From positions 6,717 through 70,716 of the forward strand of contig VMGJ01000004.1 in the NCBI GenBank assembly GCA_007376485.1: a stretch of DNA of 64,000 bases. The letters run 5' to 3'. This DNA comes from Parcubacteria group bacterium Licking1014_17. GTDB taxonomy: Bacteria; Patescibacteriota; Minisyncoccia; 2-02-FULL-40-12; IGHO2-01-FULL-4-A. Shown in pieces: positions 4,153 to 15,734 of this stretch. Position numbers and translations under genes: made by a program. The notes beneath the pieces are model-generated. The model ran no database searches and was not told where the DNA came from. It saw nothing but the letters and a program-made list of their open reading frames with translations. The stretch's first letter is position 1; every line of letters starts with the position of its first letter.

Positions 4153-7100
4153 ATGAATACCATCAAAAACAGCAAGGTATGGTTTATCGCAGTGCCATTG
4201 GTCGTTCTGGCAATTTTTGCCGTACCAATGCTAATCACGGAGAATGCTAATGCTATCTCCTTTGATACGTTAAATGCCAGGTTTGTTTCCTACGAAAACG
4301 TGCCGACAACTCTTTGCACAGATGAAGTGCATTTGGTCACTATGACCCTGCAAAATACCGGCACCGAAACATGGACTTCGGCCAAAAATATCAGGCTTGG
4401 CTCTCAAAATCCGGAGAACAACAATAACTGGGGATGGACCAGAGTTGACTTGGAAGAGCATGTTGTTGCGCCCAGCCAGCATTTGGTTCTTACTTTTTAC
4501 ATCCGCGCGCCTCTTACCGCCGGAACTTATAATTTCCAATGGGGGATGCTTCAGGAAAATGTTACTTGGTTTGGGGACTACACGGCTAATATGCCAATTC
4601 AGGTAAAAAATTGCGGCACGCCAACTCCTACCCCAACTCCGACACCGACTTCTTCTCCTACCGAATTAAAATGCCCGATTAGCAACGCGGCCAATAGAAC
4701 AATATTTACTTTCCCTGAAAGAAACTCGGAATATATTAGGGCCAACAGGACTCAAGAAGAAGCCACTTTCGGTCCGGATTCATTTAATTTAGCTAGTGGC
4801 ATTTATAAAGTTACTTTGGTGTCTTTTGATTGGCACTCAATTTATGGAGGTCAAAACCAGTCAAACGAACAATATAAAGTAATCCTGAAAAACGGAGGCG
4901 CTACGGTTGCCACCTCCAACGCCAGCGCCGATATTCCGGAAAGTCAGGATTGGCAGACAACGGTTACCAACACCGCGCTCGCGCTAACTGGTGCCGCGAA
5001 TTCAATAACCGCCATTCATGCTTTTTACCCGACTTCCAACGCCAACAGCTTGATTCCAATCTGCGCCGCGTTTGATTTGGTTCAACAGCAACCGGTTTTA
5101 CCTACTGTTAATATTAAGGCCAACGGCTCGGATGGACCTATCACGATTGATTACAATACTTCCACTACTTTGAGCTGGACATCCAAGAATGCCACGAGTT
5201 GTGTCGCTTCAAATGGCTGGAGCGGAACGAAGGCTACCTCTGGTTCCGAATCAACCGGTAATCTAACCTCAAATCACACCTACACTATAACCTGCAGCAA
5301 TGCCAACGGTTCCGACACCGATAGCGTGACTGTTAAAGTAAGGCAGCAAGAGGTTTTGCCCACCGTCGACATAAAAGCCAACGGCTCGGACGGGCCAATC
5401 ACGGTTGACTACAACACATCGGCTAATTTGAGCTGGACTTCAAGCAACGCTACGAGTTGTGTTGCTTCCGATGATTGGTCAGGCAGTAAAGCCACTTCAG
5501 GTTCGGAATCAACCGGTAATCTGACTTCAAATAAAACCTTCACTATAACTTGCAATAATCAATTCGGTTCCGATACCGACAGCGTAACTGTAAAAGTAAG
5601 ACAGGCCACATTGCCTACTGTCGACATCAAGGCCAACGGCTCTAATGGACCGATTACGATTAATTACAACACATCGGCTACCTTAAGTTGGAATTCAACC
5701 AATGCTGACTCTTGTGTCGCTTCAAACGGCTGGAGTGGAAACAAATCTACTTCGGGATCCGAATCAACGGGCAACCTGACCTCAAATAAAACATATACTA
5801 TCACCTGTTCAAATCAGTATGGTTCTGATTCAGACAGCGTAACGGTGAATGTGAGCCAGGCGGTTTTACCTACCGTTGACATTAAAGCTAATAGTTCGGA
5901 TGGGCCTATCACGATTAATTACAACACTTCAGCTACTTTGGGCTGGACATCAACTAATGCTGACAGCTGTGTTGCTTCAAATGGCTGGAGCGGAAACAAA
6001 TCAACCAGCGGCTCGGAATCAACAGGTAATCTAACATCAAACCACGTCTATACTATTACTTGTAGTAATACTAATGGCTCGGCCAGCGATTCTGTAACGG
6101 TTAACGTCCAGAACCAAGTAATACCTACGGTCAATCTTTTGGCTAATGGCTCCCACGGTTCGATTACGATTAATTACAACACTTCGGCTAATTTAAGCTG
6201 GGATTCAACTAATGCCAATTATTGTATTGCTTCAAATGATTGGAGCGGCAGTAAATCAACCAACGGTTCGGAATCAACGGGCAATCTGACAAACACCAGA
6301 ACTTATACTATCACCTGCTACAATAACAACGGCTCCGCCTCCGATTCAGTCACGGTTTACGTTAATAATCAGAACAACTATCCAACTGTTGATTTGCTCG
6401 CCAATGGTTCACATGGCTCAATTACGATTCCGAACAATACTTCCACTACTTTGAGCTGGAGCTCAAGCAATGCCAATACGTGTTATGCTTTCAACGGCTG
6501 GACCGGCACAAAGTCAACTTATGGTTCTGAATCAACCGGCAACTTAACTTACAGCAAGACTTATACAATCTCTTGCAGTAATTCTTACGGCTCCGCCTCC
6601 GATTCAGTCACGGTTAATGTCGGAAATCCCACGGGCCAAGACATGGTCAGCCTCCAGAAATTCGGTTCAAATATTACCCGCGGGCAGAGTGGCGACTACT
6701 CAACCATCACGGTTTACCCGAATGACACCGTCAGATTCGCGATTCACGTTACTTCACTGACTTCCAACACTCTGTATAACGTTAGAATAAGCGATGCCTT
6801 GCCGGCTGGGTTTACTTACGTGAACAGCAGCACGACACTTGACGGCATTCTTGTCAGCGACGGAATCACCAATACCGGCATCAACATCGGCACGTTGACT
6901 CCGAATCAGGAAAGAATTGTCCGTTTTGACGCAAGAGCCGCTTCAGGTTCCGGATTAACGGCTGGCACCTCGTATGTAAGCAATATCGCCTACGCCGACG
7001 CCGATAGTATGAACCGCGTTACGACCCAGCTTTCTATCACGATAGTCAATAGCACTGTTCCTAACGTTCCAACCGGTACTACGGGTACGGTTGCCATGGC

Positions 7101-7230
7101 CTTGGCCCTCGGCGCATTAGTGACTCTTATGTACATGGGCTACACCAGAACCGGCGCCTTCAAAAAGCGCGACGCCCAAAGCATCGCCAGGAAAAACAGA
7201 AACGACAAGAACAAGTTTAACTTCGCCTAA
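4153..7230 (+). CDS. large modular cell-surface protein: signal/TM, NBR1/CARDB-like beta-sandwich domain, TPTPTPTPTPT linker, unknown domain, 6 tandem 84-aa Ig-like repeats, DUF11-like domain, C-terminal sorting signal NVPTGT + TM + basic tail ending KFNFA
   Basis: 1025 aa; repeat consensus LPTVDIKANGSDGPITI.YNTS..LSW.S.NA.SCVAS.GWSG.K.TSGSESTGNLTSN.TYTITC.N..GSDSDSVTV.V; DUF11-like LP.G..YV.GST..DG block; terminal hydrophobic stretch followed by R/K-rich tail. Confidence 0.85.
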   Translation: MNTIKNSKVWFIAVPLVVLAIFAVPMLITENANAISFDTLNARFVSYENVPTTLCTDEVHLVTMTLQNTGTETWTSAKNIRLGSQNPENNNNWGWTRVDLEEHVVAPSQHLVLTFYIRAPLTAGTYNFQWGMLQENVTWFGDYTANMPIQVKNCGTPTPTPTPTPTSSPTELKCPISNAANRTIFTFPERNSEYIRANRTQEEATFGPDSFNLASGIYKVTLVSFDWHSIYGGQNQSNEQYKVILKNGGATVATSNASADIPESQDWQTTVTNTALALTGAANSITAIHAFYPTSNANSLIPICAAFDLVQQQPVLPTVNIKANGSDGPITIDYNTSTTLSWTSKNATSCVASNGWSGTKATSGSESTGNLTSNHTYTITCSNANGSDTDSVTVKVRQQEVLPTVDIKANGSDGPITVDYNTSANLSWTSSNATSCVASDDWSGSKATSGSESTGNLTSNKTFTITCNNQFGSDTDSVTVKVRQATLPTVDIKANGSNGPITINYNTSATLSWNSTNADSCVASNGWSGNKSTSGSESTGNLTSNKTYTITCSNQYGSDSDSVTVNVSQAVLPTVDIKANSSDGPITINYNTSATLGWTSTNADSCVASNGWSGNKSTSGSESTGNLTSNHVYTITCSNTNGSASDSVTVNVQNQVIPTVNLLANGSHGSITINYNTSANLSWDSTNANYCIASNDWSGSKSTNGSESTGNLTNTRTYTITCYNNNGSASDSVTVYVNNQNNYPTVDLLANGSHGSITIPNNTSTTLSWSSSNANTCYAFNGWTGTKSTYGSESTGNLTYSKTYTISCSNSYGSASDSVTVNVGNPTGQDMVSLQKFGSNITRGQSGDYSTITVYPNDTVRFAIHVTSLTSNTLYNVRISDALPAGFTYVNSSTTLDGILVSDGITNTGINIGTLTPNQERIVRFDARAASGSGLTAGTSYVSNIAYADADSMNRVTTQLSITIVNSTVPNVPTGTTGTVAMALALGALVTLMYMGYTRTGAFKKRDAQSIARKNRNDKNKFNFA
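5095..6620 (+). repeat. six tandem ~252-bp coding repeats (Ig-like domain array)
   Basis: Near-identical nucleotide blocks (e.g. ggctcggatgg(a/g)cc(t/a)atcacg, ggttc(c/g)gaatcaac(c/g)ggtaat) recurring every ~252 bp. Confidence 0.85.
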
Positions 7231-7262
7231 ACGGATATCTTAACGTAGGGCGGATTCAGAAA

Positions 7263-7898
7263 ATGAAATCGAGGGTCAGGTTCGCATTGCTATTTCTCAT
7301 TTCCGTTTTACTTCTCGTTATAGTGCTCAACGGGCGGTACTTTTACGCCAACGCGGTTTACTCGCTGAATCAGCCGGTATCCAATTCGACGCCGGCACCG
7401 GAAATCAGGGTGTTCATACCTCCGGTAAAAGAAGTCCCAAACGTAAAGCCTTTGCCCGACAGCGCTACATTGGTGATACCGAAAATCAATGTTTCCGTTC
7501 CTATTGTCTTCGATATCAACGGCAACAGCGAGAAAAGCATATATGACAATCTAAACCGCGGGGCGGTCCATTACTCAAACACCCCCAAGCCCGGCATGCT
7601 CGGAACAGCGATGATATTCGGCCATAGCTCTGATTACATCTGGAAGAGAAATGCCTATGCGTCCGTTTTCGCCCTTCTGGACAAACTGGAACCGGGAGAC
7701 GTGATGTACGTAAAGTACAGCGACGGCAGAAGATTTGATTTCAGGGTTAATCAAAAGATAATATTCGACCCTAATGCCAACGATTGGCGAATCCAAGAAA
7801 TGGCGTCCGCGAAAACGCCGACACTCATGCTGATAAGCTGTTGGCCGGTCGGCACCGCCAGCAAACGCATAGCCGTCGAAGCAATTGGGATTAAATAA
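7263..7898 (+). CDS. sortase-family transpeptidase (membrane-anchored)
   Basis: N-terminal TM; catalytic His in MIFGHSSDY, Cys in TLMLISCWP (TLxTC-like), Arg in SKRIAVEAI; immediately downstream of a substrate-like protein with sorting signal. Confidence 0.75.
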   Translation: MKSRVRFALLFLISVLLLVIVLNGRYFYANAVYSLNQPVSNSTPAPEIRVFIPPVKEVPNVKPLPDSATLVIPKINVSVPIVFDINGNSEKSIYDNLNRGAVHYSNTPKPGMLGTAMIFGHSSDYIWKRNAYASVFALLDKLEPGDVMYVKYSDGRRFDFRVNQKIIFDPNANDWRIQEMASAKTPTLMLISCWPVGTASKRIAVEAIGIK

Positions 7899-8062: not shown

Positions 8063-11000
8063 ATGGAAATCATACCGGCACCAGTAAAGACACCTTTTTA
8101 TAAAAAACCTGGTTTTTGGTTTCTGACCCTTTTGTTTTTGCTTCTCATCAGGGCGGAAGTTTATGTGTTGAGCGTTGACCGGCAGGTAAACCAAGTTGCC
8201 CTAATAAGCGCCACAGGCGCCGGCTGCACGACTCTTGCCCATCCCATCGCGGTAAAAGTCAGCATGCCGAATTCTCAAGAAAGCGGCTGGTTCATTGGGG
8301 TGGGTGATATCCCCGGCGCTGCCGCCTTTGACGAATCAAACATTAAAGCAGCTATTCAGAATTGGCCAGACGTTGACGGGCTTTTCGTTGGCACGGCCAA
8401 CGGTGATGGCGCGGGCGGTCCTGATGGTACTACCGATGACCGCGCCGGCTGGTTCATTATGGACTGGGGTTGTTTTAAAGATTTAGCCGGAAACGACATC
8501 GCTGAACAAGAATACGGCGTAAACGAAGGAGGAGACATATATGTGGGAACAAGCGCCACAAGCTTAAATGTTAACCCCACGCATCTATCGGGCAATCCCA
8601 ACGCTTCGGGCTGGAAGTATGTAAGCAGCATATCAGAATCCGGTTGTAGCAATTGTCTCAATAGTTTCGATATAGGATTAAATAACGGCGCTGAGTACAA
8701 ATATGTCTATTTTTGGAGCAATGGCAGTCCGGCGGGGTGCGCACCGAGTTGCATCCAACAAGAAATAGATAATGGCACCTGCAAATGCGGGATAGATGAT
8801 AGGTCTTGTGGTTGTCGTGCCAATGGAACCGTGGGGATTTCCGGTTCCAATGTTCAATATATAGAAATACTACAATCACAAAACGGCGGCACGCCTACCC
8901 CGACGCCCAAACCGACGTCTACGCCAACCTCGACACCAACCCAACAGAGTAATAATTCTCAGTGCGTCAGCATTTCCGCTCCCGACACAGTAGAGCAGGG
9001 CAAGACATTTGACGCCACGGTGGTAATGAAAAACACCGGCGCTAAGCCGTGGACCGACCCCGACAATCCGCCCGATCCGGTTGGAGGCAAAGCAACTCCT
9101 CATAAACTCGCTTCCACAAATCCACGTGCCAATATGACGTGGGGGCTGAATGAAGTCGGTCTGCCTGTCTCTAATGTCGACCCGGGAGAAAAGGCGACAT
9201 TTAATTTCAGCGTCACCGCTCCCGCAACCGCCGGCACTTACAGTTTCGCCTGGCAAATGAGAGAAGACTGGATTAAATGGTTTGGGGCGGTTTGCAGCAA
9301 AAACATACAAGTAGTCCAGCCGGCTCTCGTGAATAACGCCGAATGTGTGAGTATCACGGCGCCGGATTCGGTTGAAAAAGGCAAGACATTTGACGCCACG
9401 GTGGTAATGAAAAACACCGGCGCTAAGCCGTGGTCGGATCCCGACACCGACGGTAACAGTTACCCCCATAAACTCGGCTCGGATAATCCGAAAAATAATA
9501 TGAATTGGGGGCTTTCGAGAGTGAGCTTGCCGTTATCGCCCGTGTTGCCCGGCCAAACCGCGACGTTTGATTTTACCGCCACCGCTCCTTCGGTTGCCGG
9601 CATTTACGCGTTCGACTGGAGAATGGTTGAGGAATGGACCGAATGGTTTGGCACGGCGGGCTGTCATAAAAATATCGTTGTTACGGAACCCTACGTCCCT
9701 CCGCCCACCGTTGACATTAAAGCCAATAATTCTGATGGACCCATAACAATTCCCTACAACTCATCCGCCGCGTTATCATGGACATCTAAAAATACCGCGA
9801 GCTGTACCGCCTCGAACGGCTGGAGCGGAATGAAATCAATCAATGGTTCCGAATCAACCGGCGGTTTAATTTCTTCAAAAACTTATACTATTAGCTGTGT
9901 AGGCGCCAACGGAACGGCTTCTGACAGTGTTACTGTCAATGTCGAAAACCGGATATTACCCGTGGTGGATATCAATGCCAACGGCTCGGATGGACCGATT
10001 ACTGTTCCCTATAACTCATCGGTTTCTTTGACCTGGACATCAACCGATGCCGATAGTTGCTCTGCTTCCGGCGATTGGTCCGGCGGCAAAGCCACGGGCG
10101 GGACGGAAGATACCTCGGCGCTAATCAGCAGTAAGACCTATACAATCACTTGTAACAACCAGTACGGTTCGGATTCCGACAGCGTCACTGTCAATGTCGG
10201 CAGTCAAACTTTACCTTCGGTAGACGTAAAAGCCAACGGCTCGGACGGACCAATTACAATTCCTTATAATTCCACAGTGACATTGAGCTGGACTTCCATA
10301 AACGCTACTACTTGCGCCGCTTCCGGCGATTGGTCCGGCGGCAAAGCAATCAATGGTTCGGAAAATACCGGCTTACTGGCATTGAGCCGCATTTATACAA
10401 TCACCTGCGTAAATGGTTACGGTTCCGGTTCGGATAGCGTTGCCATTAATATAAGCAATCCAACCCCAACCCTGAACCCAACTCCAAGCCCGAATAGTTC
10501 CGGCTCGGTTAGCATTCAAAAATTCGGGATGAATATAACCAAGGGAGCGACGGTTGAATCCATAAGTATTACCGCCGATCCGAATGACACAGTCAGATTC
10601 GTCATCAGAGTGCGCTCTCTTTCCAATGGCTACGTCTTCAACGCCAGGGTGGTTGATACCTTGCCCAGCTGGTTAGGTTATGTAAACGGCAGCACTACTA
10701 TCGACGGTATTCTTGTCAGTGATGGCATAACGGGCGCCGGGCTGAATATCGGAACGCTTGCTCTGAATCAGGAAAAAATCATCCGTTTCGACACGGTGGT
10801 ATCGAACGCAAACATCGTCCCGCAGGGAACTTCTTACATTACAAATATCGCCTACATTGACGCCGACAACGTTGCCCGCTCCTCTGTCCAGCTGTCCATT
10901 AATATCGTAAACGGCTCCGTTCCCAACATTCCGACGGGAACTTTCGGCACAACTTTGCTGGCATTGGCGTTGAGCGCCTTACTGACGCTCGTCTACCTCA

Positions 11001-11068
11001 CATACAGAATTTTCAAGAAAAAAGGCGGCTCAAGCAAAGATAAAGATAAATTCAACTTTGCCTCTTAA
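8063..11068 (+). CDS. second large modular cell-surface protein: N-terminal TM, Cys-rich domain, PT linker, two duplicated NBR1/CARDB-like domains, three 84-aa Ig-like repeats, DUF11-like domain, sorting signal NIPTGT + TM + basic tail ending KFNFAS
   Basis: 1001 aa; shares repeat family, DUF11-like domain and C-terminal signal with ORF 4153..7230 but in a different module order. Confidence 0.85.
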   Translation: MEIIPAPVKTPFYKKPGFWFLTLLFLLLIRAEVYVLSVDRQVNQVALISATGAGCTTLAHPIAVKVSMPNSQESGWFIGVGDIPGAAAFDESNIKAAIQNWPDVDGLFVGTANGDGAGGPDGTTDDRAGWFIMDWGCFKDLAGNDIAEQEYGVNEGGDIYVGTSATSLNVNPTHLSGNPNASGWKYVSSISESGCSNCLNSFDIGLNNGAEYKYVYFWSNGSPAGCAPSCIQQEIDNGTCKCGIDDRSCGCRANGTVGISGSNVQYIEILQSQNGGTPTPTPKPTSTPTSTPTQQSNNSQCVSISAPDTVEQGKTFDATVVMKNTGAKPWTDPDNPPDPVGGKATPHKLASTNPRANMTWGLNEVGLPVSNVDPGEKATFNFSVTAPATAGTYSFAWQMREDWIKWFGAVCSKNIQVVQPALVNNAECVSITAPDSVEKGKTFDATVVMKNTGAKPWSDPDTDGNSYPHKLGSDNPKNNMNWGLSRVSLPLSPVLPGQTATFDFTATAPSVAGIYAFDWRMVEEWTEWFGTAGCHKNIVVTEPYVPPPTVDIKANNSDGPITIPYNSSAALSWTSKNTASCTASNGWSGMKSINGSESTGGLISSKTYTISCVGANGTASDSVTVNVENRILPVVDINANGSDGPITVPYNSSVSLTWTSTDADSCSASGDWSGGKATGGTEDTSALISSKTYTITCNNQYGSDSDSVTVNVGSQTLPSVDVKANGSDGPITIPYNSTVTLSWTSINATTCAASGDWSGGKAINGSENTGLLALSRIYTITCVNGYGSGSDSVAINISNPTPTLNPTPSPNSSGSVSIQKFGMNITKGATVESISITADPNDTVRFVIRVRSLSNGYVFNARVVDTLPSWLGYVNGSTTIDGILVSDGITGAGLNIGTLALNQEKIIRFDTVVSNANIVPQGTSYITNIAYIDADNVARSSVQLSINIVNGSVPNIPTGTFGTTLLALALSALLTLVYLTYRIFKKKGGSSKDKDKFNFAS
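8960..9690 (+). repeat. internal duplication (2 x ~380 bp) encoding paired NBR1/CARDB-like domains; contains an exact 54-nt repeat (8999-9052 = 9379-9432)
   Basis: ggcaagacatttgacgccacggtggtaatgaaaaacaccggcgctaagccgtgg occurs twice verbatim. Confidence 0.8.
9700..10455 (+). repeat. three tandem ~250-bp coding repeats of the same Ig-like family as 5095..6620
   Basis: Repeat consensus PTVDIKANGSDGPITIPYNSS..LSWTS.NA.SC.ASG.WSG.KA..GSE.TG.L.SSKTYTITC.N.YGSDSDSVTVNV. Confidence 0.8.
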
Positions 11069-11101
11069 ATATAATCGGAACCTCCGGCGCCAGCCGATAA
11101 T

Positions 11102-11740
11102 ATGAAACTCCGAAACCGGCTCATATTAATATTTATATCTCTGACGGTATTTTTTCTGATTATTCTCAATGGCAGATATTTATACGCGAACGTGTCCTAT
11201 CTGGTGAATAAGCCCACGCCTTTGGTAACGGCATCCAAACCTTCGGCGCAGATATTCATTCCTCCGGTGAAAGTGGCTTCGGGGCAAAAATCACTGCCCA
11301 ATAAAGCCATATTGGTAGTTCCAAAAATTAATGTCTCCATGCCGATAGTTTTCGGTATTAACGGAAACAGCATCAGCAGTATGTACGACGGGCTTAATCG
11401 CGGCGTGGTGCATTATTCCTTGTCTCCTATGCCCGGCACCATGGGCGCGGCGATGATTTTAGGACACAGTTCCGATTACATCTGGAAGAATAATCCTTAC
11501 GGAGCCGCTTTCGCTTTATTGAACAAACTCAAACCCGGGGATACGATGTTTGTGGAATACAGCGATGGTAGGAGGTTTAATTTTAAAGTCAACCAATCGG
11601 TGATATTCAACCCCCTCTCCGTTGATTCGGAAATTGAACTTATGCAGGCGGCAAAAGTGCCTTCCTTGATTCTTGTCAGCTGCTGGCCGGTCGGTTCAGT
11701 CGTCAAGCGGATAGCAGTAGAAGCGATAGCGATAAAATAG
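11102..11740 (+). CDS. sortase-family transpeptidase, paralog of 7263..7898
   Basis: Same architecture and catalytic motifs (MILGHSSDY, LILVSCWP, VKRIAVEAI); ~50% identical to the first sortase by eye. Confidence 0.75.
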   Translation: MKLRNRLILIFISLTVFFLIILNGRYLYANVSYLVNKPTPLVTASKPSAQIFIPPVKVASGQKSLPNKAILVVPKINVSMPIVFGINGNSISSMYDGLNRGVVHYSLSPMPGTMGAAMILGHSSDYIWKNNPYGAAFALLNKLKPGDTMFVEYSDGRRFNFKVNQSVIFNPLSVDSEIELMQAAKVPSLILVSCWPVGSVVKRIAVEAIAIK

Positions 11741-11794
11741 AAATTTGATAGAAACCGCCATTTTTGTTAGGATTTCTCATCATATCCGCCATAT

Positions 11795-11867
11795 CCGCCC
11801 CTAGCTCAACTGGCAGAGCAGATCCCTCTTAAGGATAAGGTTCTCGGTTCGACTCCGAGGGGGCGGA
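11795..11867 (+). tRNA. tRNA-Lys (anticodon CTT), atypical C1:G72 and G27/A43 mismatch
   Basis: Acceptor ccgcccc/ggggcgg, D-arm gctc-aactggca-gagc, anticodon loop ctCTTaa, T-arm ctcgg-ttcgact-ccgag; preceded by a duplicated 9-mer atatccgcc x2. Confidence 0.6.
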
Positions 11868-11922
11868 CAACATATTATTCCCAAAACTTGATTTTTTGAC
11901 CAGAAACTGAGATAATATAATT

Positions 11923-12180
11923 ATGAGAGGGTTCGTAAAATGCGCCCTGTGTGGTTGTATAATTTTAAAGATAGCTTTAGATATATTTCCTGTTGTCTGC
12001 AACCATTGCACAGAGGAAATAGAAAAAAAAGAGCAACCCCATATAGAAGTTTCAGTTTTTGCCAGTAAATATAATGCTCCGGCTAATAGATCATCGTATT
12101 ACTTATCTGGCGTGGGCTCGACTGGTGTGGTAGGGGCTATACCCGAATCCTTGAACGATTTTTCCAATAATCAGAAATAA
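11923..12180 (+). CDS. small Cys-containing hypothetical protein
   Basis: ORF only (85 aa; CALCGC...CNHC). Confidence 0.25.
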   Translation: MRGFVKCALCGCIILKIALDIFPVVCNHCTEEIEKKEQPHIEVSVFASKYNAPANRSSYYLSGVGSTGVVGAIPESLNDFSNNQK

Positions 12181-12320
12181 ATTAATTAAGTAAATCAATT
12201 CTAACTGCCCCAATACAGAAAATAGTGACGGGTTGGAATATTTTTCCTCCCGGCGGATAGATGAAACTCAGAAAATAGCACTTTTGGGAGTGCTATCTAT
12301 TAGAGAATCGGTTTTTTATA

Positions 12321-13631
12321 TTGTATTTTATGTTGAATCAAGAAGAACTTAAAGTATTACAGGAAATAGCCCACGAGAAAGGTGGTAAGTGTTTGTCTAA
12401 AGAATATAGGGGTTCCAATTTTAAGCTTCTCTGGGAGTGTAGCTTGGGTCACAGATGGCTATCTGCGCCCTGTAAAATAAAGGGAGGTAGATGGTGTCAT
12501 ACGTGCGCTGGAAATATCAAGTTAACTATAGATGAAATGCATAAAATCGCGAAACTTCGTGGTGGTAGATGTTTGTCTACGAAGTATACTAATATTGACA
12601 CAAAATTAGAATGGGAGTGTTCTGACGGTCATCATTGGGTTGCTACGCCAGATACTATTAAGGGAGGTGGATGGTGTCCCTATTGCGGTTTAAGAGGGAT
12701 AAGAGAGAATTTTTGCCGCTTGATATTAGAAAATATATTTAACAAAAATTTCCCTAAAGTAAGTCCAGTATGGCTAAAAACAAAAGACGGCAATAGAATG
12801 GAGCTTGATGGCTACTGTAATGATTTGAAGCTTGCTTTTGAATACCACGGAGAGCAACATTTTAAGAACTTAAAATTTTTTTACAGAAACCGTGGCTCGC
12901 TTCAACAAAGGATAACCTATGACAAGTACAAGAGGAAACTTTGTGAAAAAATACAGATAAAATTAATTGAAATCCCATATCTTATAGAGGACAAGGATAT
13001 ATATCAATACATACTAGCTAAATTGAAGGAGTTAAGAGTTAGAATCCCCAAACATAACGCCAAAAATATTTCAAAAATTAATAAGCAATATCTTAATAGT
13101 AGGTTGAAATATTTTTATCAAATAGCTAGTAAAAGAGGTGGTAAATGTTTATCTAGTGTCTATTTGGGTATCAATCATAAACTTAGATGGCGGTGCTCCG
13201 AGGGACACATATGGAAAGCAACGCCATCAAACGTAAAGAGGTACCACTGGTGCCCATCGTGTGCAGGCTGTAAGAGTTATACAATCAACAAGATTAGGGA
13301 GCTTGCGAAACTTCGTGGTGGTAAGTGTTTATCTACCGAGTATAAAGGCGCACATGGTAAACTTAAGTGGCAGTGCTCCAAAGGACACATATGGGAGACC
13401 ACACCGGACAGTATAAGGAACGGGACGTGGTGCCCCAAGTGCAATGGTAATATTAGTTACACTATTGATGAAATCAGCGAACTTGCGAAATCGTGCGGTG
13501 GCAAGTGCTTATCAAAAAAATATGGGGGTGCACATGGTAAACTTAAGTGGCAATGTTCTGAAGGACATATATGGGAAACTACACCTAATAGTATAAGGAG
13601 AGGGACATGGTGTCTAAAATGTAGAAGTTAA
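12321..13631 (+). CDS. multi-zinc-ribbon repeat protein with central Vsr/DUF559-like PD-(D/E)xK nuclease-fold domain
   Basis: Five ~45-aa repeats (R/K)GG(K/R)CLS..Y....KL.W.C..GH.W...P..I..G.WCP.C, each preceded by a helix (EI.ELAKLRGG). Central block ELDGY...LAFEYHGEQHF...YDKYKRKLCEKIQIKLIEIPY matches the lvIEvDG..H...D..R..L...G signature of DUF559/Vsr-like endonucleases. Confidence 0.6.
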   Translation: MYFMLNQEELKVLQEIAHEKGGKCLSKEYRGSNFKLLWECSLGHRWLSAPCKIKGGRWCHTCAGNIKLTIDEMHKIAKLRGGRCLSTKYTNIDTKLEWECSDGHHWVATPDTIKGGGWCPYCGLRGIRENFCRLILENIFNKNFPKVSPVWLKTKDGNRMELDGYCNDLKLAFEYHGEQHFKNLKFFYRNRGSLQQRITYDKYKRKLCEKIQIKLIEIPYLIEDKDIYQYILAKLKELRVRIPKHNAKNISKINKQYLNSRLKYFYQIASKRGGKCLSSVYLGINHKLRWRCSEGHIWKATPSNVKRYHWCPSCAGCKSYTINKIRELAKLRGGKCLSTEYKGAHGKLKWQCSKGHIWETTPDSIRNGTWCPKCNGNISYTIDEISELAKSCGGKCLSKKYGGAHGKLKWQCSEGHIWETTPNSIRRGTWCLKCRS

Positions 13632-13748
13632 GCCAAAGTATTGTTAATAGTTTTAATCTTTTCAATTTCCGTTCCAACCGTCTCCCAGGCGGACTGAATG
13701 GAGTGAAGGACGGTCGAAGCCCCGCAACTGTTTACGGGACGTAAGGAA

Positions 13749-14042
13749 TCAATTTTTTAGTGTCTCAAGATTTATCTGATTACTATATTCGATAAATCTA
13801 TTGGTATTATATCTAATTTCAATCAATTGAACCTGATAAAAACTATTATCATATCTTTGATCCTTATGTCCACCAGCGTATATTATTTTAATCATATTTT
13901 CTTCTTTTATATAAACAATTCTTGCACCCCGACGTTTGCACACATTTTCCTCTGGAAGATTTATCCCAGCGTGAAAGGTTTTATTTTGTAACTCCTTATT
14001 TTTAATGTGATGTACTGGGGTTTCTCCTTGGCATTTTACCAT
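13749..14042 (-). CDS. small RelE/ParE-like putative toxin (tentative)
   Basis: 97 aa; RRGARIVYIKEENMIKIIYAGGHKDQRY resembles the G.YRIIY...V.IL.IGHRKD.Y core of RelE/ParE; 107 nt downstream of the Panacea-domain gene. Confidence 0.35.
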   Translation of the reverse strand: MVKCQGETPVHHIKNKELQNKTFHAGINLPEENVCKRRGARIVYIKEENMIKIIYAGGHKDQRYDNSFYQVQLIEIRYNTNRFIEYSNQINLETLKN

Positions 14043-14149
14043 CTATACTTAAATAACGGATAGCTCTAGACATCTCTTTACCTAGGGTTTTATACCATCT
14101 GTCGTGGCATTTTTTTATGTCATCGAGAACATCAGAATGAATCATTACT

Positions 14150-14677
14150 TTAATCATCATTCAGATCCATCTCTCCAAAGCTATTCCGGTAGAATGCAAG
14201 ATAATATGGGATTTCCTCACCATACCCAACCATCTTGTAAGGAGGCTCAGACTGGGCTATTTTTTCTAGATCGCCCGCGGTTTCGAGTTTAAACTTTTCG
14301 ACTAGTTGTTTTAATATCCTTAATTCATTCTCATCAAAAATTTTAATATTAGGTTCGGAATTGGGTATGATTTTTTCCAAACCATAACTATTTGCCTCTT
14401 GGATATCAATAATGCCTTCATTTTTTAAGTCATTTAATGCTTTGTAGAATAATTTTGGTTCTGGCATCGGCCCATAGTCTTTTTTTGTATAAGGCAACCC
14501 CGTCAAAGACTTTCCTCGCGTAAGTTCAAACAATGTAAAATCAATAAAATATAAGAGTTTTGCCAGCTTCTTTTTTCCAACATCAAACCCCCCGTTTTTG
14601 GCTATAAACAAAACTGCATTCTTAAACTTTTCCTTATTATATTGGCTCTTTTTTGATAGTAACATTAGTAAAATCAT
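14150..14677 (-). CDS. Panacea-domain (DUF4065, SocA/GepA-like) putative antitoxin
   Basis: 175 aa; NAVLFIAKNGGFDVGKKKLAKLLYFIDFTLFELTRGKSLTGLPYTKKDYGPMPE matches the Panacea domain KL.KLLYF.D core. Confidence 0.6.
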   Translation of the reverse strand: MILLMLLSKKSQYNKEKFKNAVLFIAKNGGFDVGKKKLAKLLYFIDFTLFELTRGKSLTGLPYTKKDYGPMPEPKLFYKALNDLKNEGIIDIQEANSYGLEKIIPNSEPNIKIFDENELRILKQLVEKFKLETAGDLEKIAQSEPPYKMVGYGEEIPYYLAFYRNSFGEMDLNDD

Positions 14678-14960
14678 TATATCAGATTATGTATAAAAAG
14701 TTGACAACTAGTTGAATATGAACATAGTATGAACTTTCGTCAATATTGTTATGGTTTTTGTCCGAATCGGCAGAGATAGTTATCTATTTCATGAATAAGC
14801 AGTTTTAACCGATTTCCCAATGTCCCTCCATTTATTTAACTCCAATAATAAGCGTTCCAATTCCGTCCCACTAGGCGGACAAGTTTTATAATCTCTCCCA
14901 GAAGTGGATATTTCCCCCGCTTTTTTGTGATAAGTTATAAATAGTATCAATTTTACGTCT

Positions 14961-15734
14961 ATGAAGAAAATACTATTGATCGTCTTTGTTTCCGCCGCGG
15001 CGATGGTGTTAGCCGTGTCTTCCGCCCGAGCCGACAATGTTTACGCGATTACCGCTAGCCCCTCATATTCTGACACTTTCACTCTTGGCGGATCGGCTTT
15101 GGTCGGGTACAAAATTACATCTACCAATAGCGATGGTCAGACCGGTTGTAATGCCAGCGACGGCACGTCGGCTGTTGTCACTATAATAGCCCCTGACCAT
15201 ATAACTCCAACTCCGCCTTCGCTTACATTCACTAAATGCAGTGTCGCTAATTCTAACATTCAGGATGTGGTGTTTACCGCCGATCAAGCCGGCGATTATA
15301 TCATCGGCGCTTCGGCTTCCGACGCCGGAATTGGAACTTATGACACAGTGGCACACGGGATATTCACGCTTCATGTTTTGCCCGGATCAAGTCCAACCCC
15401 GTCTCCATCCGAAACACCTACACCTACACCATCCCCCACACCAACTCCTTCTCCAACGCCTACGCCGAGTCCTACCCCATCGCCATCTCCGACACCCACA
15501 ACGACTTTAACTCCATCGCCCACGCCGACTCCTTCTCTATCTCCCACACCGACTTCTTCCCCGACACCTACACTAACCCCGACTCCGACCCCCTCGCCCA
15601 CACCCACCCCGTCATCTACGCCATCGCCCTCGCCTTCACCATCAGACAAATTTAAAATGCCAACAATTGACAATTTCTTTATTCTAAATAAATTCCGAGC
15701 AATTTGGGCCAAGTGGCATCAGTTGGGATTCTGA
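14961..15734 (+). CDS. secreted protein: signal peptide, ~140-aa N-terminal domain, long (PTPSPT)n low-complexity linker
   Basis: ORF translation; signal peptide [24 protein letters not shown]. Confidence 0.6.

Follow-up and report, generated by a model that had tools for sequence, protein, structure and literature searches.

A probable homing-endonuclease-type gene, with a Vsr/DUF559-like nuclease core inside a CapR-like zinc-ribbon array, in a variable islet of a Parcubacteria genome

We analysed a stretch of 64 000 nucleotides (nt), hereafter the window, from contig VMGJ01000004.1 of Parcubacteria group bacterium Licking1014_17 (assembly GCA_007376485.1), and describe here the gene found at positions 12321–13631 of its forward strand. 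It codes for five zinc-ribbon repeats arranged around a small predicted nuclease core. We consider it probable that this is an intact, horizontally acquired and free-standing nuclease gene of the homing-endonuclease type, from a family that combines CapR-like arrays with a Vsr/DUF559/EDxHD-like nuclease. The gene is a typical member of an already described family and not an oddity. CapR-like repeats joined to an EDxHD/Vsr-like nuclease have been described as a large unrecognized outgroup of homing endonucleases, whose profiles retrieve thousands of unannotated proteins (PMC12350094, NAR 2025), and the domain combination was previously noted in Lausannevirus and Insectomime virus (PMC5513546).

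The open reading frame (ORF) is intact and extends over 436 amino acids (aa) from a TTG codon at 12321. The ATG codon at 12330 is the more likely translation start and gives the 433 aa of the NCBI entry (‘Uncharacterized protein CEN90_467’, Parcubacteria group bacterium Licking1014_17); residues are numbered throughout from the TTG codon. The window contains a single copy of the gene. A first-pass annotation of the sequence had described five repeats around a nuclease core, two of them N-terminal and three C-terminal; the same layout was recovered here (table 1), and the ORF coordinates were exact. The central segment, then put at about 90 aa, measures about 136 aa.

Table 1. Features of the zinc-ribbon/nuclease gene and its surroundings, in window positions (HMM, hidden Markov model; GC, guanine + cytosine content).
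Feature	Position	Strand	Basis or remark
Whole gene, zinc-ribbon array with Vsr-like nuclease (predicted)	12321..13631	+	ORF listing, NCBI protein
Zinc-ribbon repeat 1 (CapR/DUF4379-like); ligands C40, H44, C59, C62	12348..12506	+	Pfam, family repeat HMM
Zinc-ribbon repeat 2; ligands C100, H104, C119, C122	12522..12686	+	Pfam, family repeat HMM
Nuclease core, ~136 aa, Vsr/DUF559/EDxHD-like restriction-endonuclease fold (predicted)	12693..13100	+	alignments, AlphaFold, hhalign, tblastn
Core residue codons E129; D163; E174	12705-12707; 12807-12809; 12840-12842	+	family alignments
Core residue codons H180; D201; K204 (also G177, Q179)	12858-12860; 12921-12923; 12930-12932	+	family alignments
Zinc-ribbon repeat 3; ligands C292, H296, C311, C314	13107..13265	+	Pfam, family repeat HMM
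Zinc-ribbon repeat 4; ligands C352, H356, C371, C374	13278..13442	+	Pfam, family repeat HMM
Zinc-ribbon repeat 5; ligands C412, H416, C431, C434	13458..13622	+	Pfam, family repeat HMM
tRNA-Lys(ctt)	11795..11868	+	3' end is the left edge of the variable low-GC islet
Low-GC islet: 85-aa ORF (orf85), nuclease gene, two small overlapping ORFs, Panacea-domain antitoxin gene	11869..14900		GC, synteny

That the core is a nuclease of the Vsr/DUF559 clade is well supported at the level of sequence profiles, because it is strongly linked to phage intron nucleases such as that of Bacillus phage Bobb and moderately to the DUF559 profile, because DUF2726 recurs among its relatives and because these families share one clade. 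Aligned by hhalign with the Bobb ‘group I intron protein’, the core profile gives a probability of 97.7% (E=2e-12, 114 columns) with all key residues aligned. A tblastn search with the core alone finds matches in 50 phage records, where the genes are annotated as ‘group I intron-associated VSR homing endonuclease’, ‘intron encoded nuclease’, ‘VSR endonuclease’ or ‘homing nuclease’, and PHROG families of homing and intron nucleases match the core region. Foldseek against viral models (BFVD) returned 261 matches at E<=0.001, among them giant-virus proteins labelled ‘zinc-ribbon’, ‘treble clef’, ‘restriction endonuclease’ or ‘DUF2726’ and phage VSR homing endonucleases. The likeness to homing endonucleases and giant-virus ORFs that the first reading had suggested is thereby borne out.

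The DUF559 link comes from a comparison of two profiles, one of 268 cores and the other of Escherichia coli YcjD with 112 Pfam-confirmed DUF559 proteins (P=2.8e-4, probability 41%, 63 columns, in the predicted register). No nuclease-type Pfam family other than DUF2726 turns up repeatedly on the cores; it does so below threshold, in 12 of 28 and 13 of 70 relatives (best E=0.0012). Neither DUF559 (PF04480) nor DUF2726 (PF10881) gives a match at the Pfam gathering score, and the window protein itself has no DUF2726 hit. Vsr, DUF559, DUF2726 and the structure 3r3p have been classed in one PD-(D/E)XK clade (PMC3424549). The Vsr/DUF559-like PD-(D/E)xK core proposed in the first-pass annotation is upheld on the DUF559 and Bobb side, while the direct match to Vsr itself is weak. 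Strict membership of the core in the EDxHD family is unproven.

In alignments of 28, 114 and 147 sequences, the invariant or nearly invariant positions of the core are E129, L162-D163-G164, F173-E174-x-x-G177-x-Q179-H180, D201-x-x-K204 and an L-I-E-I-P strand. The window protein keeps all of the family-invariant ones, including the putative catalytic residues E129, D163, E174, H180 and D201, whose conservation was one of the checks suggested at the outset. An AlphaFold model computed with the 114-sequence alignment has a mean predicted local distance difference test score (pLDDT) of 90.6 and a predicted template modelling score of 0.67; the single-sequence model of the whole protein was unusable (pLDDT 39). 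In the aligned model, E129 lies on helix 1, which is followed by short strands ending in the strand of D163 (strand 2) and by the strand of E174 (strand 3). H180 occupies the turn after the latter, D201 and K204 stand on the long helix 2, and the LIEIP strand and a further helix complete the core. The modelled alpha-beta-beta-beta-alpha-beta succession is the order of restriction-endonuclease-like nucleases. The EDxHD motif consists of a Glu (Vsr E25), an Asp (D51), a variable position (H64), a His (H69) and an Asp (D97), with an acidic residue at the position of Vsr F62 (PMC3239194). This composite motif can be fitted one-for-one with E129, D163, E174, [H/Q]176, H180 and D201, residue 176 varying as its ‘x’ allows.

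Against Vsr, I-Bth0305I and YcjD as single sequences, the core profile gave no significant hhalign match, the register being as expected each time; the alignments to I-Bth0305I, YcjD and DUF559, though weak, all share one register. Sequence and profile searches of the PDB sequences, with the protein and with the core, gave no match. Foldseek of the five-repeat model against the PDB was dominated by beta-rich noise, and the only nuclease-related matches, to 1vsr and R2 retrotransposon proteins, were not significant. Starting from the Bobb nuclease domain, a homolog search found two proteins only and no bridge, and the best 150 matches of an exhaustive search with the core were all close family members, offering no route to annotated families. 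NUMOD and helix-turn-helix (HTH) motifs have no match in the window protein, in which zinc ribbons take that role; NUMOD3 is present in a few other family members.

An HNH nuclease was considered and rejected: no HNH-family Pfam domain matches at E<=1, and the core carries the signature D...E-x-x-G-x-Q-H instead. Homologs in PHROG 559 and in the RefSeq phage records NC_047767.1, NC_018831.1, NC_071136.1 and NC_027366.1 are annotated ‘HNH endonuclease’. This label looks like a propagated misannotation, both the window protein and its Bobb homolog being devoid of an HNH Pfam match.

The repeat periodicity of the ORF is real and far beyond chance. The motif GG[KR]CLS occurs at residues 21, 81, 273, 333 and 393, with a period of exactly 60 aa and an insert of 132 aa (by motif spacing) between repeats 2 and 3; a 180-nt period is also seen at the DNA level. 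Pfam DUF4379 (PF14311, ‘probable treble clef zinc finger’) is found in five stretches, at E=3.4e-22 (78.9 bits; cutoff 24.5), with Pfam CapR (PF21817) overlapping it (E=5.2e-10, 39.8 bits against a cutoff of 24.2), and an HMM of the family repeats recognizes each of the five copies at E=1e-20 to 1e-27. Every repeat contains W-x-C-x2-G-H-x-W and W-C-x2-C; the zinc-binding pattern C-x3-H + C-x2-C (CHCC) is found in all five, so that 20 of 20 ligands are present. Among 1,699 repeats of the family, the repeat positions C32, H36, C51 and C54 are invariant, while the Cys of ‘CLS’ is replaced by L, I, F or V in approximately 14 per cent; the latter is therefore a buried position of the hydrophobic core and not a zinc ligand. 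The repeat motif first proposed stands with this correction to its first Cys, and the short helix noticed ahead of each repeat is placed before every repeat by the AlphaFold model as well.

DNA binding by this type of repeat is documented for CapR, a satellite-encoded repressor that originated from the DNA-binding domains of homing endonucleases of phages. CapR binds a specific DNA site in electrophoretic mobility shift assays (EMSA), and Cys-to-Ser mutation of its four conserved cysteines abolishes binding; zinc-dependent, sequence-specific DNA binding has been demonstrated, by EMSA, only for CapR itself (PMC8096241). The identical repeat type is joined to another nuclease (T5orf172) beside nrdD in T5-like phages and to a Vsr-like core in Bobb, which makes the zinc-ribbon repeat a portable DNA-binding module, one that serves two unrelated nuclease types. 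In Escherichia phage YJin-2024a (L003, 2950–3621) and other T5-like phages, two CapR/DUF4379 repeats accompany the T5orf172 domain, and this fusion gene overlaps the start of nrdD by 14 bp.

The family to which the window protein belongs is very large. Over 2,000 homologs came up in a word-indexed search; they belong to bacteria, archaea (Woesearchaeota, Nanoarchaeota and Methanobacteriota) and Bacillus/Priestia, and the best of them are only 44–49% identical. An exhaustive profile search with the core alone retrieved 28,334 clusters (50% identity) at E<=0.001, of which 1,266 remain at E<=1e-30. One core embedded at variable position in 8–11 repeats is the arrangement of 116 of the 120 best matches; the other four are arrays without a core. 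Among 147 representatives the number of repeats varies from 0 to 13, five being the commonest, and the core stands in mid-array in 112, at the end in 26 and at the start in 9. The exact order of the window protein (ZZNZZZ, two repeats, core, three repeats) occurs in 10 of the 147. The architecture, which had at first been called unusual, is thus the common form of the family. Proteins with two nuclease cores also occur, e.g. Z-N-Z-N-Z (P0121, P0122, P0179 and P0237), some with unannotated N-terminal regions of 260–580 aa; in ten long family members, Pfam revealed hardly any further domain.

Some members consist of 8–12 zinc ribbons and have no nuclease core (P0025, P0026, P0038 and P0069). Such arrays would suit a domesticated DNA-binding protein, a repressor or nucleoid factor like CapR, with the core serving a structural role or being inactive. 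CapR is itself such a derivative of homing-endonuclease DNA-binding domains (PMC8096241). We nevertheless regard this as very unlikely for the window protein, since the putative catalytic residues are all invariant in the family and present here, and a sporadic, low-GC gene does not fit a fixed regulator.

The arrays appear to have changed by internal duplication and loss. Repeats 4 and 5 of the window protein are 72% identical at the nucleotide level and 78% identical at the amino acid level, the latter value indicating a recent tandem duplication. Between close relatives, repeats from matching places with respect to the core resemble each other no more than those from unlike places do (0.50 and 0.50), compared with 0.54 within one protein; for the family representatives the corresponding values are 0.38, 0.375 and 0.44. 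Repeats that are more alike within a protein, and that show no positional conservation between proteins, point to arrays remodelled from within rather than to ordered sets of orthologous readers. The variable repeat positions (29, 33, 37, 39, 41, 43, 44, 47 and 49) are polar and alternate along the strands. It is conceivable, although we find it rather unlikely, that the repeats form a modular DNA-reading array with a recognition code, or that the cellular long-array proteins make up a novel class of single-gene immune nucleases instead of being homing elements. In the modular case, each unit of about 60 aa would read a few base pairs through its variable polar strand positions, the array flanking the cutter on both sides and changing rapidly through gain and loss of repeats, and the protein would be comparable, as a natural ‘programmable’ nuclease scaffold, with zinc-finger or TALE nucleases.

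The genomic context of the gene is that of a variable cargo slot. The GC content is 36.2% in the islet and 38.1% in the nuclease gene, compared with 46.9% and 44.5% in the flanks. Between tRNA-Lys and the nuclease gene lies an ORF of 85 aa with a CxxC...CxxC pattern (11923–12180), for which no family match was found (best zf-BED, E=0.48), followed by a hairpin with a T-run at about 12277–12320. We compared the window region 11795–15734 with four syntenic loci (L014, L017, L018 and L021), whose proteins are 40–55% identical and whose gene order is p434, p125, DsbA, aminotransferase ... tRNA-Lys, sortase. The slot between the aminotransferase gene and the 3' end of tRNA-Lys measures about 0.5 kb in three of these relatives, the gap in L021 being 485 bp, whereas it reaches 5.1 kb in L014 and 3.85 kb here. 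In L014 its cargo is metabolic (an FAD oxidase, a G3P-dehydrogenase-like gene, GDPD and an epimerase). No family member is present in 80 related loci (822 kb). A search for an empty site with the sortase gene yielded nothing in species-genome or metagenome collections, and with the aminotransferase gene only distant syntenic relatives. An att-like direct repeat of the tRNA-Lys 3' end was sought and none was found. An intron- or intein-borne gene was rejected: the Rfam scan of positions 11000–15500 detected tRNA-Lys(ctt) only and no intron RNA, leaving the nuclease gene free-standing.

On the other side of the gene, the reverse strand carries a Panacea (SocA-like) antitoxin gene (14150–14677) and then two small ORFs (14160..14002 and 14042..13749), with an ATGA-type overlap; the two small ORFs overlap each other in different frames. 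They have no Pfam or PADLOC match and may represent a frameshifted toxin gene. The GC-rich patch at 13660–13750 folds no better than shuffled sequences. The neighbouring frameshift, if real, would be in keeping with a locus in decay, and the window protein has five repeats against 8–11 in its closest homologs. That the gene is a decaying remnant of a mobile endonuclease, no longer functional, is in our judgement the least probable of the explanations considered, as the frame is unbroken, none of the 20 zinc ligands or the invariant core residues is missing, and five is the commonest repeat number among the family representatives; the remnant mentioned in the first-pass annotation is disfavoured accordingly.

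Further along, a gene for a 257-aa protein with a long low-complexity tail rich in Pro, Thr and Ser (14961–15734) shows a local GC content of up to 0.58 and a GC skew that is strongly negative. The protein matches no Pfam family and is without a homolog in the syntenic relatives, and it may be part of the variable slot. Upstream of tRNA-Lys, two tandem cassettes (4153–7898 and 8063–11740) each encode a surface protein of about 1000 aa, with N_BRCA1_IG-like Ig domains and DUF11, and after it its own sortase. They look like a duplicated cell-surface display module in this bacterium of the Candidate Phyla Radiation (CPR).

Nine homolog loci from other organisms have unrelated neighbourhoods and no partner gene in common. 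Some homologs adjoin toxin–antitoxin (TA), restriction–modification (R-M), HEPN or methyltransferase genes; others lie in the midst of dnaA/dnaN, SRP54/prefoldin, asd or feoB, the gaps between genes sometimes being 1–19 bp. These neighbourhoods raise the alternative of a stand-alone, restriction-like nuclease of cellular defence, which would protect its host by recognizing foreign DNA with the array and degrading or nicking it with the Vsr-like domain. Members of the family occur widely, as single chromosomal genes, in both bacteria and archaea, the window gene lies in a variable islet beside the Panacea-domain antitoxin module, and homologs are found beside an R-M pair (C5 methylase + MwoI-like), HEPN/Macro/NucS, MazE/AAA_13/HNH_repeat and an N6/N4 methyltransferase. 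However, PADLOC matches neither the nuclease protein nor its three small neighbours, neither a conserved partner nor a cognate protective methylase is present, and other homologs sit among housekeeping genes. Mobile and defence genes would moreover be expected in the same variable regions, so that their co-location is weak evidence, and the nearest annotated relatives are intron-encoded homing nucleases. We hold a defence function to be unlikely on balance, though it is the rival that carries most weight; the ‘defence effector’ first suggested gains no support from PADLOC or from conserved gene neighbours.

The homolog beside the C5 methylase and MwoI-like gene (L004, 9346–11350) and that beside an N6/N4 methylase (L013, 8334–9302) recall the pairing of vsr with dcm, beside which it lies, and this could be a coincidence. 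A Vsr-like repair endonuclease that nicks mismatches or lesions, with the zinc ribbons as general DNA clamps, would agree with these two adjacencies and with the placement of the core in the Vsr/DUF559/DUF2726 clade. Yet the Vsr family of Pfam (PF03852) matches neither the window protein nor the 28 + 70 family members examined, and the Pfam scan of ten neighbouring window genes found no methyltransferase. Vsr has the DNA-intercalating residues W68 and W86 and a long DNA-inserting helix (PMC3239194); no counterpart of these was found, as no significant alignment with Vsr was obtained. The patchy, horizontally transferred distribution of the family also differs from that of Vsr, described as not laterally transferred (PMC3424549). 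The probability of a repair function is accordingly very slight.

Several observations weigh against a homing-type nuclease, the reading that we favour. In the cellular long-array branch there is no member with a shown activity, target site or homing event, and the window gene lies outside any intron or intein. No true empty-site allele from a close relative was found, the syntenic relatives being just 40–55% identical in their proteins. The direct links to characterized enzymes are faint: hhalign of the core against the E. coli Vsr sequence gives 0.2–0.3%, which is not significant, Foldseek of the whole five-repeat model against the PDB reaches 1vsr at E=0.59 (template modelling score 0.42, 120 columns), and the core HMM scores I-Bth0305I at just 4.6 bits, in the right register. 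The spacing from Gly to His in the core is three residues, which DUF559 shares; in Vsr and I-Bth0305I it is four. To judge from the repeat alignments, the lack of positional conservation between proteins would be odd for a fixed long target. Finally, about half of the homolog loci lie beside conflict genes (TA, R-M, HEPN), which a defence role would equally fit.

As a homing-type nuclease, the protein might work as follows. The gene would have arrived by horizontal transfer as part of the small low-GC islet, which occupies the variable slot next to the 3' end of tRNA-Lys; its low GC content, the variability of the slot, the absence of a copy from the related loci and the unrelated neighbourhoods of the homologs speak for such mobility. 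By analogy with the CapR domain, each zinc ribbon may contact DNA, and the two arms of the array (2 + 3 repeats) could align the protein with an extended DNA site, bringing the nuclease to the centre of that site. Mg2+ would be held by D163 and E174 together with E129, and H180 would act as the general base, like D51 and H69 of Vsr or D196 and H213 of I-Bth0305I. Cutting would probably produce a nick per monomer, or a double-strand break upon dimerization. Cleavage of an allele that lacks the gene, followed by recombinational repair, would spread it, and duplication or loss of repeats within the gene would shift the target preference of the arrays.

Database labels for this very large family are mostly ‘hypothetical’, ‘zinc-ribbon domain-containing’ or, wrongly, ‘HNH endonuclease’, and the window copy allows a CPR-bacterial gene to be correctly annotated. 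It also documents the common cellular form: a nuclease in mid-array, internal duplication, no positional conservation of the repeats and travel as a solitary cargo gene. We did not find the mid-array nuclease and the lack of positional conservation stated in the literature as family-level details; they amount to variations, without introducing a new principle. None of the members with long arrays has been characterized biochemically. If the repeats read DNA modularly, the family could serve as a small targeting scaffold made of protein alone; failing that, the gene is an ordinary selfish-nuclease gene.

Compared with named systems, the window protein has its full-length structural matches among giant-virus ORFs (Klosneuvirus, Marseillevirus and Lausannevirus; up to E=2e-36, 37% identity), of which the Lausannevirus and Insectomime proteins combine four DUF4379 domains with a restriction-endonuclease domain (PMC5513546). 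These ORFs differ in lying in viral genomes, often in multiple copies, and none has been characterized biochemically. CapR of the Vibrio cholerae PLE satellite (PMC8096241) shares the zinc-ribbon DNA-binding module (Pfam CapR, E=5e-10), but is a 15.5-kDa repressor without a nuclease, and its ligands are four Cys instead of the Cys-His-Cys-Cys of the window family. The T5orf172 homing endonucleases of ICP1 and T5-like phages differ in their nuclease, which is of the T5orf172/GIY-YIG-like type.

The DUF559 (PF04480; E. coli YcjD) and DUF2726 (PF10881) proteins have the same E-x-[DHQ]-G-x-Q-H spacing and the same D on the preceding strand; unlike the window protein, DUF559 proteins are small, single-domain and without zinc-ribbon arrays. 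I-Bth0305I, the prototype of the EDxHD family (PDB 3R3P; PMC3239194), is intron-encoded in a phage recA gene and has N-terminal NUMOD/HTH motifs in place of zinc ribbons. Its sequence similarity to the core is marginal (4.6 bits), the His of the window protein being one residue nearer the Gly. Both proteins are bipartite, with a DNA-binding region and a small nuclease domain, and the weak alignment would equate E129 with E170 (helix 1), D163 with D196 (strand 2), E174 with E206 (the Vsr F62 position), H180 with H213 (the His general base) and D201 with D222 (helix 2), the following ‘D-K-x-K...L-x-I-E’ stretch being similar.

The closest parallel is with Bobb (AII28086.1) and the phage group I/II intron endonucleases (PMC12350094). 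In these proteins the nuclease follows 2–5 repeats (in Bobb, HTH motifs come next), whereas the window protein has it in mid-array (2 + 3), and the window gene is chromosomal in a CPR bacterium, free-standing and without intron RNA nearby. Position 176 is H or Q in the family of the window protein and D in Bobb and DUF559. Common to both are CapR/DUF4379-like repeats of about 60 aa, a nuclease of about 100–140 aa and the nuclease signature D...E-x-x-G-x-Q-H...D-x-x-K.

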